Assembly: GCA_033759635.1 (NCBI GenBank)
Contig: GCA_033759635.1_4528.1
Length of the DNA: 64,000 nucleotides
DNA from: a phage
Reading direction: 5' to 3' (one strand)
Position 1 is the first letter of the stretch. Each line of letters begins with the position of its first letter. Positions 3,108-40,789 of the stretch are shown piece by piece. The notes beneath the pieces were generated by a model. That model saw only the letters and a list, made by a program, of their open reading frames with translations. It made no database searches and had not been told where the DNA came from. A program made the translations under genes and the position numbers.

Positions 3108-4841
3108 TTACCCAATATCAATACGAGATCCGTCAACAGTATATTGTCCTGAAGCTATTGAGCTCATTGTAGTCATTGTCTCAGACCAATTGCCAGCAAC
3201 AGTCATATCAACATTACCATTGACAGTCCATTTAACATTACCATTGACAGTATAGTCATGATTCCCTTCAACTTGAGTCTTAGCATCACCTTTAACAAGA
3301 ATATCTGCATTTCCGTCAACAACTATTTTGATATTGCCCTTAACGTAAAGAGTTCCATCGCCTTCAACAGTTTTAGTTTGGTTACCACGAATAAAGATTG
3401 TGTCGCTGCCATCTATTTGATGGAGGCGGTCTGCCATGTTATAATATATTTCATTAGCACCAACGTTAACAAGTTTATCACCAGAAATCAAGAAGTTCCC
3501 ATCGCCATTAGTGATGTCAAAAAGGTCTTCTACAGTTTTACGAGTACGACGACCGGATGGAGAAACTTCCTCATATGACCCTGTCGGATGAACTAAGCGA
3601 TAACGTTCATTACCTGGAGTGTCGTCAAACTCTTGGATATGTCCGCTTTCTGTTTCCATAGCATGAACATACGGGTATTCACCACGATAACTTGATTCCG
3701 GTTCTTTAAAAAGGATACGTGAATCTAATGGAACAGGAGGACTAGCCGGATCTTCTGGATCTGTATTTCTAGTAACTAAATCGGCACCAACACCAGGCGA
3801 AGGTGGTGTTTTAACAGGAACACCGTATGATTCCATGTTACCAGTTAAAATAATTGTTGTTACGCGTGAAGCACGTCCTTTAGTCTGTTGGAACCATAAC
3901 GAATCACGCCCAGATTTGTATGCAGTTTTCCAATCGCCTGCGGCCATTGCTTTAAGCATAGTATTGAATTTTGCTACACCGCCAACACCCATTTGGAAGC
4001 ACATGTTTTCTAATGCCATTTGGCGAGACCTATTCATTTTGGCATAAACAGGACCTACTTTAGAATTAGAACGAATATCTTTCTGCATCTTAGCAAGGTC
4101 TTTCTCAAATAACGCTGTTGCTTCTTCTAATGTAATAGTCCCGGGATTTCCTGTTACTTCACGCCCTACTTGATCAGATAACAATTTATTAATTCGAGTC
4201 ATGTCTCGGGTCTTTTCCATTACGATAAGGTGTCCAATACCTACTGTAGGATACCCTAGATGGTCCCAATACACTTTATCACGAAGTCCTTCGTCACGAC
4301 GTAACATTTCTGTTATTGTAAAATTAGGGTCATCATCTTCTGGAATATTTGCTAAATCTGTATCATCCGGGTTTATACCATAATCCAAGTTGTTATCTTG
4401 AATTACGTTAGAGTTTGAATAATAACCAGCTTCACCACCTTGGTTTAATACGTTCGTATCATTACCTAAACGTCGCGGATATTGGCCAGTCGGGTCTGAA
4501 AAACCTTCAAGTCTATTAGGCTTTTCACGTACGATTCCGCCGTATGTACCAAGTACAATCCCGTTTGTTTTCCATTTGTCTAAGAAATGACCGTATACTC
4601 GAGTTCCTTCAACAGGACCTGTAACAGAACCACCAATACCTGAAATTGATGCAGACGTAATAGGTTGAATAACAGTCATCCACGGAAGTTTTTCTGTAGG
4701 AATACCTTGTACATCACCTTGTGCTCTCTGTGCTGGATGAAGACCAACGACTCGAACTCGAACTCGCCCTTGTTTTAATGGGTCCATTCTGTCCTCAACA
4801 ACACCCACGAACCAATTAAGGCTACTGCTAATCATTTCCAT
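3108..4841 (-). CDS. 5: baseplate central spike / tail lysozyme gp5
   Basis: 577 aa; central T4-lysozyme-like domain (GYPTVGIGHL...) and C-terminal repeated VxGxxxV beta-helix repeats (VKGDAKTQVEGNHDYTVNGNVKWTVNGNV); T4 gp5 is about 575 aa. Confidence 0.9.
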   Translation of the reverse strand: MEMISSSLNWFVGVVEDRMDPLKQGRVRVRVVGLHPAQRAQGDVQGIPTEKLPWMTVIQPITSASISGIGGSVTGPVEGTRVYGHFLDKWKTNGIVLGTYGGIVREKPNRLEGFSDPTGQYPRRLGNDTNVLNQGGEAGYYSNSNVIQDNNLDYGINPDDTDLANIPEDDDPNFTITEMLRRDEGLRDKVYWDHLGYPTVGIGHLIVMEKTRDMTRINKLLSDQVGREVTGNPGTITLEEATALFEKDLAKMQKDIRSNSKVGPVYAKMNRSRQMALENMCFQMGVGGVAKFNTMLKAMAAGDWKTAYKSGRDSLWFQQTKGRASRVTTIILTGNMESYGVPVKTPPSPGVGADLVTRNTDPEDPASPPVPLDSRILFKEPESSYRGEYPYVHAMETESGHIQEFDDTPGNERYRLVHPTGSYEEVSPSGRRTRKTVEDLFDITNGDGNFLISGDKLVNVGANEIYYNMADRLHQIDGSDTIFIRGNQTKTVEGDGTLYVKGNIKIVVDGNADILVKGDAKTQVEGNHDYTVNGNVKWTVNGNVDMTVAGNWSETMTTMSSIASGQYTVDGSRIDIG

Positions 4842-5416
4842 TATGCAATCTCCATCTCACGAATCAAATCAGTAATAAACGAGTTTATATCTTCTTTTGC
4901 AACAATTTTTATTTTACGAAGTTTTTCATTATCTAATATTGCCGCTTCATAAGTATCTACTGCAGCTAAAGGTCCTTTATATTGCGGATACTTACGAGCT
5001 TCATCACCTTTATCATACCACACTAAAGGCTCGTCTGGATATGAAACTAAATTGTAAAATTTCTCACGGTTATCGTTAATATGGTAAAGAATTTGGTCTC
5101 CGCCAGCATTTGCATATTTCTGAATAGACGCTTGATACGCTGCTTCCTGAGATGTAATCCAACCATAATACGGATCATAGTTATCATTACACATCAAAAG
5201 GACCCAGTATAATTGAGGGTTGCCATAAATTATGTTTGCTAGTTCTTCAGGACGTGGAGAGCCTTTAATATAATAAGAACGTAATCTATAATTGGCAGCA
5301 ACACGTTTAAAGTACTCTTTATAGTTACGAAATATGTCTGTCATAGGAATAGTAGGTGCATTCTTATTAATGGTTTTAGCACTATACCCTATTGGGTCGA
5401 AGAATGTAAATAACAA
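4841..5416 (-). CDS. 53: baseplate wedge protein gp53
   Basis: 191-aa ORF immediately upstream of gene 5 on the same strand; size and position match T4 gp53. Confidence 0.65.
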   Translation of the reverse strand: MLFTFFDPIGYSAKTINKNAPTIPMTDIFRNYKEYFKRVAANYRLRSYYIKGSPRPEELANIIYGNPQLYWVLLMCNDNYDPYYGWITSQEAAYQASIQKYANAGGDQILYHINDNREKFYNLVSYPDEPLVWYDKGDEARKYPQYKGPLAAVDTYEAAILDNEKLRKIKIVAKEDINSFITDLIREMEIA

Positions 5417-14814: not shown

Positions 14815-15111
14815 ATGAGTATTGGCATGGGATTTGCCTTTGGATTAGTTGGATTTATTATTGACGGCGTTGTGTTAGGATTTATAGGGAACACTGGTGG
14901 ATTCACAGATCAATGGCAGGACTTACGGTATACCCAAGCCTTTGCATCCATCGCATCATTTTGTACTGTAGTCTATTTTTACTACAATTTTATAAACCAT
15001 AACAAGAAAAATAAAAAAGTTTACGCTTCTCAAATGATTAGTTATAATGAACTCCTAGCTAGACGTGAAAATGAAACAATCGAAAACTTTATTAAGGAAT
15101 GTAGAAAATGA
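14815..15111 (+). CDS. small membrane protein, ENFIKECR-tail family (copy 1)
   Basis: N-terminal TM segments; C-terminus ...ENFIKECRK shared with the 17257 and 18250 products. Confidence 0.55.
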   Translation: MSIGMGFAFGLVGFIIDGVVLGFIGNTGGFTDQWQDLRYTQAFASIASFCTVVYFYYNFINHNKKNKKVYASQMISYNELLARRENETIENFIKECRK

Positions 15112-15413
15112 GTAAGATTATTGAAATTAAAGTACCAGAGTTTAATGATGCCAAATCCGCTTCAGATGCAATTTATAAACTTCTGAATCAAGCTGAACGT
15201 ATCGAAGAAGAAGCTACAAAGATTGCAGACCAATATGCAGTATCGTTTTCTGTAGGTGATTATGGTAGCGGTCGTACTTATTATCCTAAGGGTGAAATCG
15301 TATCCCAGTGGATGAAAGATGAAATTGAAAATAATGGCGGCGATGTTAAGCGTGAAGGTAATGGATACGTTATTACTGAAGGTGCTTGGGTTTCATCTTC
15401 TGCGTTGTGCTAA
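15108..15413 (+). CDS. hypothetical protein, WVSSSxxC-tail family (copy 1)
   Basis: 101 aa ending GAWVSSSALC; shares a YGxGxTYY motif with the next gene. Confidence 0.5.
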   Translation: MSKIIEIKVPEFNDAKSASDAIYKLLNQAERIEEEATKIADQYAVSFSVGDYGSGRTYYPKGEIVSQWMKDEIENNGGDVKREGNGYVITEGAWVSSSALC

Positions 15414-15422
15414 GGAATCATT

Positions 15423-15695
15423 ATGTCTAAAGAACAAACCGAACTGGCTGAAGCTGTAGCAAAAATCTATGCAGCTATTGAGGCTGCCAAAGAAATTGCT
15501 GATAAACAAAACACAACATTCGACTTGTATCCAGCTTATGGTATGGGTGGAACGTATTATTCTCCTGGATTCTTGAAAAAAGAACTTGAGCATTATACCG
15601 AACAAGGCAATCCGAATTGGGCCACTGTCAACCAACACTCATATTACACCAGCCTCGAATCAGGTGGTTGGGTTGCATCTTCTATGGAATGCTAA
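15423..15695 (+). CDS. hypothetical protein, WVSSSxxC-tail family (copy 2)
   Basis: 90 aa ending GGWVASSMEC. Confidence 0.5.
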   Translation: MSKEQTELAEAVAKIYAAIEAAKEIADKQNTTFDLYPAYGMGGTYYSPGFLKKELEHYTEQGNPNWATVNQHSYYTSLESGGWVASSMEC

Positions 15696-17256: not shown

Positions 17257-17562
17257 ATGAAATTAGGCGAAACCAACCGAATTGGTCTTTTAACTATATT
17301 TGTATCACTTTTTTACGTAGCTCTTTCTGTTGCAGTATTACAAAAGGCTTACGATATGGATGGTGTTCCTGGTTTTGTATTCTTATCACCATTTTTATTA
17401 TTCGTCGGGGCTTTGTTATTATATGCCACGACTAGTTTTGACCATAACGTCTGGGTTAATTATAAATGTAAATTGTCTGAAGAAGAACACGCAGAAGCTC
17501 GTAAAAAAACTATTGAATCTACCAATCTAGAAAATTTCATTAAAGAATGTCGAGGAAAATAA
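17257..17562 (+). CDS. small membrane protein, ENFIKECR-tail family (copy 2)
   Basis: Two TM segments; C-terminus ...LENFIKECRGK. Confidence 0.55.
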   Translation: MKLGETNRIGLLTIFVSLFYVALSVAVLQKAYDMDGVPGFVFLSPFLLFVGALLLYATTSFDHNVWVNYKCKLSEEEHAEARKKTIESTNLENFIKECRGK

Positions 17563-17563
17563 T

Positions 17564-18250
17564 ATGAATAGTTCTAAAGTGTTTAATAGTCAAGCTCGTG
17601 CAGTAGGTGGTTTTGCTCATAACGTACAAAATGACCAAATCAAAAATGAACCAATGTTCTTTAACTGTGATTTGAGTTTTGCTTGGGATAACGGCGGTCC
17701 TATTACTCGTAGCTTTATTGCCAATCTCCCAATTGATTGGACTAATCAACATGTTGTATTTGATTCTCGGGTTCATATGCTGATGCCTGGTTGGTATCCT
17801 GCTATTCCTGGATATCACCATGACGATGTTCCTCGCCCTGATATTCCAGTCTGCCAACACTTTATTACTGCAGGACAACCTGACTATGATAACCCTCGTT
17901 ACCATTCTGAACATATTCTTGGTCTTGTTAACGCTGACGTGTGTCCTACTCATTTTGCAACAGGAACTGCAGAGTTCAGTCAGATTCCTGATGGCGAACT
18001 TATCTATCGCCAATGGCACAAAGAAGTCCTCGAAAAAATTGAAAAAGGTGAACTAGAGAAATGGGAAGCTCCAGACCGTACTCTTCTTCAGTTTGATTGG
18101 CAAACATGGCACACTGGTTCTCGTGCAATTAGTAATGGATGGCGTTGGTTCGGACGTGTATCTCGTAATACAGACCGAGTTAAAAAGATTACCAATGAAA
18201 TTCGTGTCAATGCCCAAGTTTATCTGGAATTCCCTATGGAAGGCTGGTAA
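17564..18250 (+). CDS. hypothetical protein (His/Cys-rich)
   Basis: 228-aa ORF; several HxD/HH/Cys clusters suggest metal binding, but no family recognised. Confidence 0.5.
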   Translation: MNSSKVFNSQARAVGGFAHNVQNDQIKNEPMFFNCDLSFAWDNGGPITRSFIANLPIDWTNQHVVFDSRVHMLMPGWYPAIPGYHHDDVPRPDIPVCQHFITAGQPDYDNPRYHSEHILGLVNADVCPTHFATGTAEFSQIPDGELIYRQWHKEVLEKIEKGELEKWEAPDRTLLQFDWQTWHTGSRAISNGWRWFGRVSRNTDRVKKITNEIRVNAQVYLEFPMEGW

Positions 18251-18741
18251 TGATTAACAAAACATATTGGTCTAATATTGTCGACGGCAATGAAGGTATT
18301 TCATACTATTCAGTAGATTGGACAGGATGTCCATCCTACTTAGTGAAACGTATTTGTCAAGAATTTAAAATCGACCAGCCAGCAGGTATTATCGTGAACA
18401 GATACATTAATGGATATCAACCTATCGATGAAGTAATACGAACAACTCAAGCTGATCTTGAAAAGTTTTTCAATAAGTGTCAATGGATAACAGGATGGAT
18501 TATATTTGTACCGTCGGTATGGTTTTTTAGTACTAAAGTAAGTGCCTTTGCCATACCAGATATTATCGCTATCTTATTAGCATCTACTATCGTAAGTATT
18601 ATTGGTGGTATTATTGGTGGAGGTACTATAGGCATCATTATTAATCTTGTTAAAAGTAGTTTACAGGAACGTAAAGACAAGATAAAGGCCAAGAATAATG
18701 AAGTTGAACGTTTTATTACCGAATGCAGGAATTTGAGATGA
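18250..18741 (+). CDS. membrane protein, ENFIKECR-tail family (copy 3)
   Basis: TM segments with a GG-rich helix (IIGGIIGGGTIG); C-terminus ...VERFITECRNLR. Confidence 0.5.
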   Translation: MINKTYWSNIVDGNEGISYYSVDWTGCPSYLVKRICQEFKIDQPAGIIVNRYINGYQPIDEVIRTTQADLEKFFNKCQWITGWIIFVPSVWFFSTKVSAFAIPDIIAILLASTIVSIIGGIIGGGTIGIIINLVKSSLQERKDKIKAKNNEVERFITECRNLR

Positions 18742-19456: not shown

Positions 19457-19945
19457 ATGAATATATTTGAAATGCTTCGTAATGACGAAGGTCTTAGACT
19501 GACTTTATACAAAGACACTGAAGGCTTTTGGACGATTGGCATAGGCCATTTAGTAACAAAGAACCCGTCTTTAGCCGTAGCTAAAGCTGAACTTGACAGA
19601 ATGATCGGTCGTAAATGCAACGGTACAATTACCCTTGATGAGGCTGAAAAGCTATTTAATGAAGACGTTGATAAAGCCGTTCGCGGGATCTTGGGTAATG
19701 CTAAACTTAAACCGGTATATGATTCTTTAGATGCGGTTCGTCGATGTGCATTGGTCAATATGGTCTTCCAAATGGGTGTATCAGGCGTCGCCGGTTTTAC
19801 TAATTCTCTTCGTATGCTTCAACAGAAACGTTGGGATGAAGCGGCAGTAAATTTAGCCCAATCTAAATGGTATCGTCAGACACCTAATCGCGCGAAACGC
19901 GTAATCTCAACATTTAAAACAGGAACTTGGAAAGCGTATATATGA
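19457..19945 (+). CDS. e: endolysin (T4 lysozyme, gene e)
   Basis: [32 protein letters not shown]... is colinear with T4 lysozyme including catalytic Glu11/Asp20/Thr26 context; 162 aa. Confidence 0.95.
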
Positions 19946-23136: not shown

Positions 23137-23435
23137 TGGCTCAAATCCTATCAGGCTTTGGAACTCATTATGAAGCATCTCGACGCATAACTGAAAGCAA
23201 TCCTTTTGGCCTTGTTCCGAAGCACAAGAAAATTCAAAGCCTTGATGACTTTGAGAATCGCCTATGGGCCCTCTTTAATGAGTACAAGGCATATCTGAAA
23301 GAAGACGCTGACGATTGTCTTGAAGAAGATGAGATTGCGTATTACGAACAACGCCTTGAACAGCTCAAGAACTTCCACCAGGTTCGTGACGAAGTATCTA
23401 AAGCAGTTAAAAAGTTAATTCCTTTCAAAGAGTAG
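23136..23435 (+). CDS. hypothetical protein
   Basis: ORF 23094..23435 trimmed to MAQILSGFG...; TAATG coupling. Confidence 0.45.
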
Positions 23436-23485
23436 TTTACTTCTCCTCTAGTTGTGTTACTATAGACCTGTCAACTAGAGGAGAA
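23435..23485 (+). promoter_or_regulatory. early promoter cassette with long-range inverted repeat
   Basis: GTTTAC; TTCTCCTCTAGTTG ... CAACTAGAGGAGAA bracketing TGTTACTATAG; right arm includes the regB RBS. Confidence 0.5.
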
Positions 23486-23491
23486 ATCAAA

Positions 23492-23950
23492 ATGACTATC
23501 AATTCAGACGTTTTTATCCGCCGTAATAAACTCCGTCGAATCTTTGAAACGGAGTTCCGCAAAATAAATGCCGGTATAAAAGATGCTGCAAAGTCTCTTG
23601 GACTACCAGGCTTTCATATCAAGTATTCTCAACATCTCTTAGATCGTGCCATCCAGAGAGAAATAGATGAGAATTACGTTTTTGAATTATTTCGTAAAGT
23701 AAAAAATCATGTTAAAGAAGTTGCAGAATTTTTATCAATGCCGGCACGTCCAGATGTTGATGAAGATTTTGTCGAAGGTGTCGAATATCGCCCAGGCCGT
23801 TTAGAAATAACTGATGGAAATCTTTGGTTAGGACTTACAGTCTGTCGCGAAAATCCAGCATTCAAAATGAAGACTCTTCAATGTAGAATGGCTATTATTA
23901 ACAGTAAACGACTACCAGGAAAAGCTTCTAAAGCAGTGATTAAAATCTAG
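23492..23950 (+). CDS. regB: RegB site-specific endoribonuclease
   Basis: MTINSDVFIRRNKLRR...KYSQHLLDRAIQREIDE...GVEYRPGRLEITDGNLWLG... matches T4 RegB as recalled from memory (not searched); 152 aa. Confidence 0.8.
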   Translation: MTINSDVFIRRNKLRRIFETEFRKINAGIKDAAKSLGLPGFHIKYSQHLLDRAIQREIDENYVFELFRKVKNHVKEVAEFLSMPARPDVDEDFVEGVEYRPGRLEITDGNLWLGLTVCRENPAFKMKTLQCRMAIINSKRLPGKASKAVIKI

Positions 23951-23958
23951 AGGTAAAC

Positions 23959-24501
23959 ATGAGAAAAGCACTACTCGCTGGTCTATTTGCTCTTTCGTTA
24001 TCAGCACATAGCTCCGAGCATACTTTTAGTAATGTCCAACTCGATAACTTGAATTATGCTTATCAGTTTGGGGAACAGTTTTCTAAGGACGGAAAATTTA
24101 AAACGCATGAAAATATGCATAAGAAAGGACTTGGATACATAATGGCCGCAATACTATGGCAAGAATCATCTGCCGGTATTAATCTTAAAGATAAGAAAGG
24201 TCACCATGCGTATGGAATGTTCCAAAATTATCTACCGACAATGAGGGCAAGAATTAACCAGCTTGGTTATAATATGTCTGATGCCCAAATTAAGAAAATG
24301 CTATCTAAGCGGTCTAATTCGGCCAGATGGGCTTATATCGAATTTTCTTATTGGTTAAATATACATAACGGGGATATAAGAAAAGCTATATCCTCATATA
24401 ATGCGGGGTGGAAGACAAGTGCTGGAAGTAAATATGCTTCTGAAGTCCTAGAAAAGGCTAATTACCTTAAATCAAATAAACTACTGGAAATAAAAGAATG
24501 A
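23959..24501 (+). CDS. exported lytic transglycosylase (SLT domain)
   Basis: N-terminal signal peptide; SLT motifs in order: ES (LWQESSAG), GLMQ-like (YGMFQ), AYNAG-like (SYNAGW). Confidence 0.65.
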   Translation: MRKALLAGLFALSLSAHSSEHTFSNVQLDNLNYAYQFGEQFSKDGKFKTHENMHKKGLGYIMAAILWQESSAGINLKDKKGHHAYGMFQNYLPTMRARINQLGYNMSDAQIKKMLSKRSNSARWAYIEFSYWLNIHNGDIRKAISSYNAGWKTSAGSKYASEVLEKANYLKSNKLLEIKE

Positions 24502-24845
24502 CCAAAATGTTAGCTTTAATAGTTGGCTTGGTTTCATTTAACGCTCTTGCTAATACTACATATACTGATGTAACGGAGTATACAAACAGAACGGCGTCTG
24601 ATTATTGTGGTAAAAGTCAAGAGTGTAAAGTAGATTTTTCACAAAAATTGTTATATGCGTATAAAGACGGAGAAAAAGATGGGGCGTCTAGTAGGTTCAA
24701 GGCGTCTACCTTAATTAAAAGATACTATAAAAAATGGCAAATATTAGAATGCTCGGTGGCGGAACCTAAAGATAAGGCAGCATGCAATTCTATGGTGGAC
24801 CGTCTAGTTGACTCTTATACTAGAGGACTTGCAGCAAGTGATTAA
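24498..24845 (+). CDS. exported Cys-containing protein
   Basis: Signal peptide (MTKMLALIVGLVSFNALA), four Cys; ATGA-coupled to the transglycosylase gene. Confidence 0.5.
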   Translation: MTKMLALIVGLVSFNALANTTYTDVTEYTNRTASDYCGKSQECKVDFSQKLLYAYKDGEKDGASSRFKASTLIKRYYKKWQILECSVAEPKDKAACNSMVDRLVDSYTRGLAASD

Positions 24846-25305
24846 AAACTATATCAAGGGCGATATTGTCGCCCTGTTTTCTAAAGGTAATAATATTGCT
24901 CATGGGTGCAATTGTTTTCATACAATGGGTGCCGGTGTAGCAGGTCAATTGGCAAAGGCTTATCCAAAAATTTTAGAAGCCGATAAACTTCAAACCGAAT
25001 TCGGAGACGAGTCTAAACTCGGGACTTATTCGGTTTATGAAAAATATTTTAAGACCCATAAAGCTTATTGCTTTAATCTTTATACACAGTTTGAGCCGGG
25101 ACCTAATTTTGAGTACTCTGCTTTAATGAATTGTATAATAGAATTAAATGAATTCGGAAAAAATAAGATAACAAAGCCTGTAATTTATATGCCAAGAATT
25201 GGTGCAGGTATTGGTGGTGGAAACTGGGATGTCATCGAAGAGATTTTAGATACGTATTCCACTAAACTAGAAATTGTGATTGTTGATTGGGAACCATTGT
25301 TATGA
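24808..25305 (+). CDS. macro domain protein (putative ADP-ribose binding/hydrolase)
   Basis: Macro-domain signature N-x-A-x(5)-G-x-G-V-x-G (NIAHGCNCFHTMGAGVAGQLAKAYP); track start is TTG at 24808, GTG at 24838 is an alternative. Confidence 0.6.
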   Translation: MTLILEDLQQVIKNYIKGDIVALFSKGNNIAHGCNCFHTMGAGVAGQLAKAYPKILEADKLQTEFGDESKLGTYSVYEKYFKTHKAYCFNLYTQFEPGPNFEYSALMNCIIELNEFGKNKITKPVIYMPRIGAGIGGGNWDVIEEILDTYSTKLEIVIVDWEPLL

Positions 25306-25696: not shown

Positions 25697-25890
25697 TTAC
25701 TCGCGAACAAAAGAACGAAATATTATTTTTAGTTGGTGAAATTATTAGTTTAGAAAAGGATTTGTCTTTTGAAATATCTTCTGAATATGGAGATGCCGAA
25801 ACATATTACGAATTAGTAAAATCTATCAATAAAGCTGAAAATGATTTAGAAACATATTTAGAAAATTTAACTAAGGACTCTTATGGCTAG
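25693..25890 (+). CDS. small acidic hypothetical protein
   Basis: 65 aa, ATGA-coupled. Confidence 0.45.
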   Translation: MITREQKNEILFLVGEIISLEKDLSFEISSEYGDAETYYELVKSINKAENDLETYLENLTKDSYG

Positions 25891-26716: not shown

Positions 26717-27019
26717 ATGGCCTTAAGAGCGATAGCTGTCATAGCGATGCTGGGGTTTTTTGCAGCAACAACTCCTATCGTTGGTACTGCACATATTGAC
26801 CCATATTTTGATAACTTTATGGAATCAGGGATTAAAAACGTATATACTTTGTTTGAAATTCAAAATGTCGAGAATTCTGAAAAATTCTATAAGTATATGG
26901 CAAAGCATTACAAAAATAGCCCCTGTGATGATGCATTTGAATGTCATGAACAAGGCATAAAAACTGCCAGACAATTTGCTGAGTTCATGAAAATAAAATT
27001 AGAGCCTACATCTATCTAA
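26717..27019 (+). CDS. rI: RI lysis-inhibition antiholin
   Basis: N-terminal signal-anchor-like segment then DPYFDNFMESGIKNVYTLFE...SPCDDAFEC..., colinear with T4 RI as recalled from memory; 100 aa; next to tk as in T4. Confidence 0.8.
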   Translation: MALRAIAVIAMLGFFAATTPIVGTAHIDPYFDNFMESGIKNVYTLFEIQNVENSEKFYKYMAKHYKNSPCDDAFECHEQGIKTARQFAEFMKIKLEPTSI

Positions 27020-40573: not shown

Positions 40574-40789
40574 ATGTATAAATTTCGTAAAGGTTTAGCT
40601 GATTTTCTTACAACTGTAACGTTCTTTTTGTTTATGGCAGTTGGAGCTATTTTTCTTATTCCTTTTACTGGTGTATTTTTCGTGATTAGTTTAATTTCTC
40701 CAGAAAAGGGCTTATCTTCTAATGAGTTCAATGAGCGTCTGGATAAAATTACTAACAAACTGAATTCTGTTCTTGATAAAAAGGCTTAA
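40574..40789 (+). CDS. small membrane protein
   Basis: 71 aa, two hydrophobic segments. Confidence 0.45.
   Translation: MYKFRKGLADFLTTVTFFLFMAVGAIFLIPFTGVFFVISLISPEKGLSSNEFNERLDKITNKLNSVLDKKA

Follow-up and report, generated by a model that had tools for sequence, protein, structure and literature searches.

The vs.1–vs gene pair of a T4-like phage: a predicted exported transglycosylase-like protein and a conserved partner that may restrain it

Why would a phage that carries an endolysin encode, at a separate locus, a murein-hydrolase-like protein with a signal peptide, and what is the small cysteine-containing protein whose start codon overlaps its stop codon? This question is raised by two adjacent open reading frames (ORFs) on the + strand of the window, by which we mean the whole 64,000-nucleotide (nt) stretch of phage contig GCA_033759635.1_4528.1 (NCBI GenBank assembly GCA_033759635.1) analysed here. 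The first ORF (23959..24501) encodes 180 amino acids (aa) and the next one (24498..24845) encodes 115 aa, which confirms the observation from which the original prediction was made. That prediction described an exported lytic transglycosylase (LT) and a coupled periplasmic Cys protein, for which roles in superinfection exclusion, cell-wall remodelling or an enzyme/inhibitor pair were considered, and this interpretation is partly supported here. It missed the identity of the genes, which are vs.1 and vs of phage T4, the 115-aa protein having a textbook function in binding valyl-tRNA synthetase (ValRS) that is unlike the one proposed. The reading that we favor is that Vs.1 is a periplasmic LT-like enzyme and Vs its co-translated exported regulator, probably an inhibitor; it is held tentatively, with the chances leaning slightly to the doubtful side of even.

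The approximately 2 kb around the pair was 97.8–99.5% identical to many Escherichia phages, including HX01, and by this match the source phage is identified as T4-like, of the genus Mosigvirus and about 98% identical to HX01. The 180-aa protein shares 82% amino-acid identity with T4 Vs.1 (NP_049725) and belongs to PHROG 600 (phrog_600, E 4.6e-67 over residues 1–178). The 115-aa protein shares 67% identity with T4 Vs (NP_049724) and belongs to phrog_1256, “valyl tRNA synthetase modifier” (E 5e-35); its homologs carry PF26829. Judged from these similarities, the pair is orthologous to T4 vs.1 and vs, and the gene order regB–vs.1–vs–tk.4–tk.3–tk.2–tk.1–tk–rI.1–rI is common to the window and T4. 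The T4 pair is like the window pair in order, gene overlap, signal-like N-termini and conserved Cys, and differs by sequence divergence only, the overlap being 8 nt in T4 and 4 nt in the window. Vs.1-like sequences were found in 2059 phage records, including Kuttervirus and Felixounavirus, and Vs-like sequences in 796. Both ORFs are genuine genes rather than chance ones, given these many records, a ratio of nonsynonymous to synonymous substitution (dN/dS) of 0.14 for vs.1 against T4, and the invariant residues in both proteins described below. Both T4 genes were already known, vs.1 annotated as “hypothetical” and vs as a ValRS modifier, as was the resemblance of vs.1 to SLT, which was published as marginal but conserved (Nolan et al. 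2006, PMC1524935). No functional study of vs.1 was found in the literature searched, in which the evidence for Vs as an exported protein obligately linked to vs.1, clashing with its annotation, appears to be new.

The ES, GMFQ and SYNAGW motifs that had been noticed in the 180-aa protein were read from the sequence as WQE69S, G86MFQ89 and S146YNAGW, with a downstream Y159, so that the order Glu-Ser, G-(L/M)-x-Q, (A/S)-Y-N-x-G and Tyr is intact in the window Vs.1. Among 38 diverse homologs, 40–83% identical to the query, E69, S71, G86, Q89, N90, Y147, N148, G150 and Y159 are all invariant (38/38). These invariant residues match the four ordered motifs of family-1 LTs. The Pfam SLT family (PF01464) was matched by 35 of the 38 members (E ≤ 0.01, best 1.3e-7), with no other family matching, and many Vs.1 homologs bear a precomputed PF01464 hit; in NCBIfam, neither Vs.1 nor Vs found a match. 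An AlphaFold2 (AF2) model of Vs.1 was all-helical, with a predicted local distance difference test score (pLDDT) of 89.6 and a predicted template-modeling score (pTM) of 0.83, and placed Glu69 at the C-terminal end of helix 59–70. The top 16 Foldseek matches of this model in the PDB comprised MltD, P. aeruginosa Slt, Slt70-type enzymes, goose lysozyme and a GH23 chitinase at a probability of 0.96–1.0, indicating a lysozyme-like fold that superimposes on solved LTs, a clear but distant match at the level of models. In a weakly scoring hhalign alignment, Glu69 fell on Glu505 of the E. coli Slt70 precursor and GMFQ lay over GLMQ. In the numbering of the mature enzyme, this Glu505 is the catalytic Glu478. 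Invariance, alignment with Slt70 and helix-end position together point to Glu69 of the ES motif (codon at 24163..24165, + strand) as the predicted catalytic acid.

On this combination of motifs and model, Vs.1 is described as a predicted divergent SLT/GH23 LT-like protein. With the family-1 LTs (PF01464, GH23; E. coli Slt70, MltD and EmtA), and with the small “specialised” LTs of the VirB1/IpgF/EtgA type that serve secretion systems in the periplasm, it shares the helical lysozyme-like fold, the ES / GxxQ / YNxG / Y order, the Glu at a helix end, and an architecture of a signal peptide followed by one domain of some 160 aa. A feature of Vs.1 itself is an extra conserved N-terminal helix with the pattern FSxxQxxNLxYAYxFG. 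The family is phage-restricted, as a search of 185,579 species genomes gave one match, which lies on a 167-kb phage-like contig. Signal-peptide-bearing Vs.1-type SLT proteins were also observed in Kuttervirus SE14 of the Ackermannviridae (locus L006, 1408–2025) and in Felixounavirus HK3 (locus L007, 1408–1956), the latter directly 3' of rIIA–rIIB. They have a common N-terminal motif, S..Q...M..AY..G, which suggests a wider phage-specific subfamily of putatively exported transglycosylases.

The signal peptides claimed for both proteins held up under a rule-based prediction, and their features are conserved across homologs. The rule applied here asks for a basic n-region, a hydrophobic h-region of 7–15 residues, and small residues at −3/−1 in the c-region. 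The N-terminus of Vs.1 reads MRKALLAGLFALSLSAHS, followed by SEHT, and that of Vs reads MTKMLALIVGLVSFNALA, followed by NTTY; all three features are seen in both. The predicted Sec signal peptide of Vs.1 covers residues 1–18 (23959..24012, +; cleavage AHS/SE; model pLDDT 64), and that of Vs likewise covers residues 1–18 (24498..24551, +; cleavage ALA/NT; disordered in the model, pLDDT about 50). In both AF2 models, the first 18–20 residues were of low confidence and detached from the fold. Only 5 of the 120 + strand ORFs in the window were flagged by the rule, namely vs.1, vs, rI (the known periplasmic antiholin) and two membrane-like ORFs. One flagged ORF of 71 aa (40574–40789, +), with a long hydrophobic N-terminal half (MYKFRKGLADFLTTVTFFLFMAVGAIFLIPFTGVFFVISL), looks more like a two-helix membrane protein. 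The basic start, hydrophobic core and small-residue cleavage site were present in all 38 Vs.1 homologs, in which the N-terminal sequence itself varies. In the Vs family, a signal-like N-terminus was found in 55 of 55 full-length members, 52 of which pass the rule, and 4 have a lipobox, LSGC. Such a replacement characterizes the Enterobacter phage CC31 group, in which the Vs signal gives way to a lipoprotein lipobox (MKKLFVLLVVVALSG, followed by C). This favors export of Vs, since a lipobox has meaning only on an exported protein. Judged from these patterns, conserved export-signal features are present in both proteins and argue against a purely cytoplasmic Vs. The SignalP table published in 2006 lists novel ORFs only, and vs and vs.1 are not among them.

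The four Cys noted earlier in the 115-aa protein were located at positions 37, 43, 85 and 96. All are invariant in 37 Vs homologs, together with a C-terminal SMVDRLVDSYxRGL. Exhaustive phmmer with the window Vs alone yielded 7 representatives only, and a profile yielded 43 clusters; the broad Vs family was uncovered by a hidden Markov model (HMM) iterated on the ORFs of 70 vs.1 loci from viral contigs, although the resulting alignment was too divergent as a seed for a scan of the collection. In this broad family, exactly four Cys beyond residue 24 were found in 55 of 55 full-length members, with spacings of 5/6/10 and 8/10, and they probably form two disulfides. The AF2 model of Vs (pLDDT 86.8) consists of helices 20–37, 41–64, 69–85 and 90–113. 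The cleaved form is predicted to have a mass of 11.0 kDa in both T4 and the window phage, and the precursor 13.1 kDa in T4 and 12.9 kDa in the window; for the latter, the predicted mature protein has 97 aa (10,992 Da), and mature Vs.1 would have 162 aa (18.7 kDa, pI 9.6). Damaged copies of vs were also observed: one CC31-like contig (locus L043, 3049–3376) has it broken into two ORFs, and in phage vB_EcoM_005 (locus L027, 3041–3298) an internal deletion removes the first Cys pair, leaving 85 aa. Such occasional damage fits a dispensable gene.

The ATGA coupling of the two genes could be read directly at 24498..24501 (+), where the vs start shares bases with the TGA stop of vs.1. This arrangement is kept in relatives. 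A Vs-family ORF was found in 64 of the 70 vs.1 loci, and in 58 of the 59 loci that could be measured its start lies at −8..+7 nt from the vs.1 stop. The coupling extends to Acinetobacter T4-like phages, in which Vs is only about 25% identical and the flanks are not regB and tk.4. In a Slopekvirus-like group, a Vs-like gene lies 0.4–1.3 kb downstream of a divergent 213-aa SLT paralog. Conversely, for 27 of 27 independently found Vs loci the contig also has vs.1, whereas Kuttervirus, Felixounavirus and Aeromonas T4-like phages have Vs.1-type enzymes, their catalytic motifs intact, but no Vs. From these start and stop positions, translational coupling of the two genes is supported across a wide range of T4-like phages. 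In the Aeromonas group (loci L065–L067 and L076, about 3356–4300), regB–vs.1 is kept and Vs is absent; the vs slot before the macro-domain gene tk.4 is occupied by a different secreted protein of 140–146 aa, with a lipobox-like IYGC or MYGC in three loci.

Data for T4 are available from a HIDEN-SEQ preprint (bioRxiv 10.1101/2025.11.20.689424; transposon figures from Extended Data Table 6 S8), in which vs and vs.1 are both classed as non-essential. The mean reads in liquid LB were 26.6 for vs and 22.6 for vs.1, compared with 128–652 for the neighbours tk, regB, tk.4 and vs.3, so that insertion mutants of the pair are roughly 5- to 25-fold rarer than those of the neighbours. In M9 glucose, the log2 fold change was −2.19 for vs (adjusted p given as 0) and −0.87 for vs.1 (p 0.0055, adjusted p 0.155), and it ranged from −0.07 to +1.17 for the neighbours (adjusted p ≥ 0.80, not significant). 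A clean T4 vs deletion also impairs plaques on M9 glucose (10.1101/2025.11.20.689424). The vs mutant being worse off than the vs.1 mutant in M9 is as expected if Vs restrains Vs.1. A partner that is never alone, an enzyme that sometimes is, and a loss of the partner that is worse than that of the enzyme make up the pattern expected of an enzyme–restraint pair.

These observations can be assembled into the following model. The two genes would sit in the prereplicative (early) gene block directly after regB. The Vs.1 precursor would be exported by Sec and cleaved after residue 18, giving a soluble, single-domain periplasmic SLT/GH23 (family-1) enzyme that may cut murein glycan strands during infection with Glu69 as the catalytic acid. 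Its action would be independent of endolysin e; the separation of the two, as originally pointed out, is evident from the position of e at about 19457..19945, 4 kb upstream of the pair. Vs would be made by translational coupling from the same mRNA, likewise exported, and folded in the periplasm as a four-helix protein, its four Cys probably in two disulfides. There its dedicated role would be with Vs.1, which it most likely holds back stoichiometrically, as an inhibitor or regulator, so that the infected cell is spared damage. The earlier idea of an enzyme/inhibitor pair thus gains indirect support from the co-occurrence asymmetry and the T4 transposon data, while the function of the pair itself is our inference. 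The idea of superinfection exclusion was set aside, as nothing in the analysis points to it and T4 is already equipped with Imm and Sp for that purpose.

Known enzyme–partner systems resemble this model in part. T4 Spackle (gene 61.3/sp) inhibits the gp5 tail lysozyme, and Ivy, MliC/PliC, PliG and LprI are periplasmic inhibitors of lysozymes or LTs. Vs shares with Spackle and these inhibitors a small size, a signal peptide, helices and Cys, and is an early phage protein; its binding to a murein hydrolase in the periplasm is so far a proposal. It differs in that its model is structurally unlike all of them and that inhibition by Vs is deduced; Spackle moreover is not encoded beside its target and acts on the enzyme of an incoming phage, unlike what is proposed for Vs. 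Enzyme–immunity gene pairs are also known among the glycoside-hydrolase effectors of type VI secretion and elsewhere. These are alike in having an enzyme gene followed by a tightly linked small exported partner, sometimes a lipoprotein, and in a partner that is never alone, an enzyme that sometimes is, and the greater harm of losing the partner. They are unlike Vs.1 and Vs in that the latter would both stay in the same infected cell, with no delivery apparatus and no sequence or fold kinship to such pairs.

Several points weigh against the reading of an LT-like enzyme with an exported restraint. The window Vs.1 scored 18.3 bits against Pfam SLT (E 0.0017), under the gathering cut-off of 21.3, and its Foldseek matches had weak E-values (0.016–0.2) at TM scores of 0.4–0.53. 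Compared with solved LTs, it has just 14–20% identity, stays under that cut-off, carries the extra N-terminal helix and is phage-restricted. A family-profile search of PDB sequences retrieved no LT for Vs.1, and PDB searches with single sequences and profiles gave nothing useful for either protein. The Vs model found no match when compared with known lysozyme and LT inhibitor folds, and neither fold nor sequence similarity was seen to Spackle, Ivy, MliC/PliC, PliG, PliI or LprI/DUF1311. The four Cys could form a metal site instead of disulfides. Both mature proteins are basic (Vs.1 pI 9.6, Vs pI 8.3), so that charge complementarity is not obvious. High collinearity among T4-like genomes makes adjacency by itself weak evidence, and as vs.1 insertions may be polar on vs, the transposon data are suggestive only. 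Muralytic activity, export and Vs–Vs.1 contact are not on record for any family member. Classical genetics reportedly showed that vs affects temperature-sensitive valS hosts in vivo, a point in favor of cytoplasmic action. Finally, earlier biochemistry and genetics, as cited in PMC8076793 and 10.1101/2025.11.20.689424, have T4 Vs bind the host ValRS, in the cytoplasm.

This last assignment leads to the textbook explanation, in which Vs is the cytoplasmic “tau” factor that binds and alters host ValRS, its hydrophobic N-terminus being unused for export or export being partial, with Vs.1 an unrelated neighbour and the coupling a matter of compact packing. The annotation as a ValRS modifier stands in T4 and hundreds of other records, and the function is cited from Muller & Marchin 1975/1977 in PMC8076793; the medium-dependent plaque defect of the clean vs deletion was read by its authors via ValRS (10.1101/2025.11.20.689424), and overlapping start and stop codons are common throughout this genome. 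This account leaves unexplained why a Sec-type signal is kept in 52 of 55 Vs members despite a diverging N-terminal sequence, why it turns into a lipoprotein lipobox in the CC31 group, and why a small helical protein has four invariant Cys. It also fits poorly with a vs.1–vs pair that persists where both flanks differ, and with a Vs that was never seen without vs.1; in the literature searched, nothing was found to show how the vs locus of genetics came to be equated with this ORF. We regard it as possible but doubtful. The conflict may be resolved in three ways: Vs is exported and the ValRS link is mis-assigned or secondary, Vs is dual-located, or the signal-like N-terminus is unused. Of these, an unused N-terminus is the least comfortable option in view of the conserved signal, the lipobox variant and the four Cys. 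The purified factor is said to have been about 10 kDa, which is nearer to the predicted cleaved Vs (11.0 kDa) than to the precursor. A stronger claim would be that Vs is an exported, disulfide-stabilised periplasmic regulator of Vs.1 with a previously unseen fold, that its ValRS link is mis-assigned, secondary or artefactual, and that the pair forms a conserved early module for murein remodelling, the loss of which accounts for the defect of T4 delta-vs in minimal medium; this is a speculation to which we lend only limited credence.

Alternatively, both proteins may be exported and work independently, Vs.1 as an auxiliary murein hydrolase in lysis or wall remodelling and Vs on another target, such as a host envelope protein or a component of an incoming phage. 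The export features of both proteins fit this explanation, which can also accommodate the unequal size of the vs and vs.1 fitness effects and the Vs.1-type enzymes without Vs in Kuttervirus, Felixounavirus and Aeromonas T4-like phages. A precedent is Tgl of Kayvirus (Staphylococcus phages, PMC7150955), a Sec-secreted, signal-peptide-bearing LT-like enzyme with early-type transcription, apart from the late endolysin; it differs from Vs.1 in its Gram-positive host, its IsaA/SceD-like domain family and the lack of any described coupled partner gene. Independent action is difficult to reconcile with a Vs that never occurs away from vs.1, with a coupling that stays tight even where Vs proteins have diverged to about 25% identity, and with the Slopekvirus Vs-like gene still lying 0.4–1.3 kb from the SLT paralog, and we consider it unlikely. 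Far more improbable is that Vs.1 is a signal-arrest-release (SAR) protein, tethered inactive to the inner membrane until depolarisation frees it to act as a second endolysin. The N-terminal segment of the window Vs.1 (ALLAGLFALSLSAHSS) is indeed rich in Ala, Gly and Ser, a composition resembling SAR domains, but the uncharged part spans just ~16 residues, with a good AXS cleavage site at its end, and most homologs have a strongly hydrophobic core, Pro and an AXA-type site, which are typical of cleaved signals. The gene vs.1 also lies in the early block, apart from the lysis genes, and T4 RI, formerly counted among the SAR proteins, turned out to carry a signal peptide that can be cleaved (PMC8385771).

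The pair is conserved in hundreds to thousands of T4-like phages, many of which are therapeutic candidates. If Vs is periplasmic, roughly 800 genomes carry a misleading annotation that has spread among them, and another explanation is needed for the defect recently reported for T4 delta-vs in minimal medium. An early LT with a dedicated regulator would be a new element in T4-type envelope management between infection and lysis, possibly with a new family of LT inhibitors, and would surprise T4 specialists. If the textbook explanation holds, these are just two known genes, yet the odd signal-like N-terminus of Vs still needs explaining.

Upstream of the pair, regB (23492..23950, +) was identified by Pfam REGB_T4 (E 8.8e-69), and a GAGGT ribosome-binding site of vs.1, read from the sequence (23950..23954, +), lies 4 nt 5' of its ATG and overlaps the regB stop codon. 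An early-promoter-like element, GTTTAC-N17-TACTAT, and a GGAG Shine–Dalgarno sequence were found 5' of regB (23435–23491, +). From this element, the position of the genes and knowledge of T4, regB–vs.1–vs is probably transcribed early. Promoter and terminator scans around the pair gave nothing above the shuffled expectation, and no MotA-box pattern was seen near it. The Shine–Dalgarno sequence of regB holds GGAG, the motif cleaved by RegB, and so fits the autoregulation known from T4. Directly 3' of vs lies the macro-domain gene, the tk.4 ortholog (24808–25305, +), followed on the same side and in the T4 order by tk at 25883 and rI at 26717. The mechanical start of the tk.4 ORF is a TTG at 24808, and the start annotated in HX01 is a GTG at 24838, which overlaps the vs stop by 8 nt. 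T4 tk.4 was recently named AdfM, an anti-DarTG2 factor (bioRxiv 10.1101/2025.11.20.689424). A G+C-rich hairpin (AGGGCGATATTGTCGCCCT) with a T-run was observed at 24857–24875 (+), 12 nt past the vs stop and inside the 5' end of tk.4, and the same hairpin is kept in T4 (locus L001, about 5345–5375, −). It could be an attenuator or terminator between vs.1–vs and tk.4; since it overlaps the stretch that encodes the conserved peptide KGDIVALF, however, it may have been kept by coding constraint.

Elsewhere in the window, three small predicted membrane proteins (14815–15111, 17257–17562 and 18250–18741, all +) end in ENFIKECRK, ENFIKECRGK and ERFITECRNLR, respectively. Judged from these endings, the three appear to be paralogs whose conserved tail lies in the cytoplasm or the periplasm. 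Two adjacent ORFs of ~90–100 aa (15108–15413 and 15423–15695, +) have a common ...GxxYYxxG... and the Cys-terminal endings GAWVSSSALC and GGWVASSMEC, and likewise appear to be paralogs.

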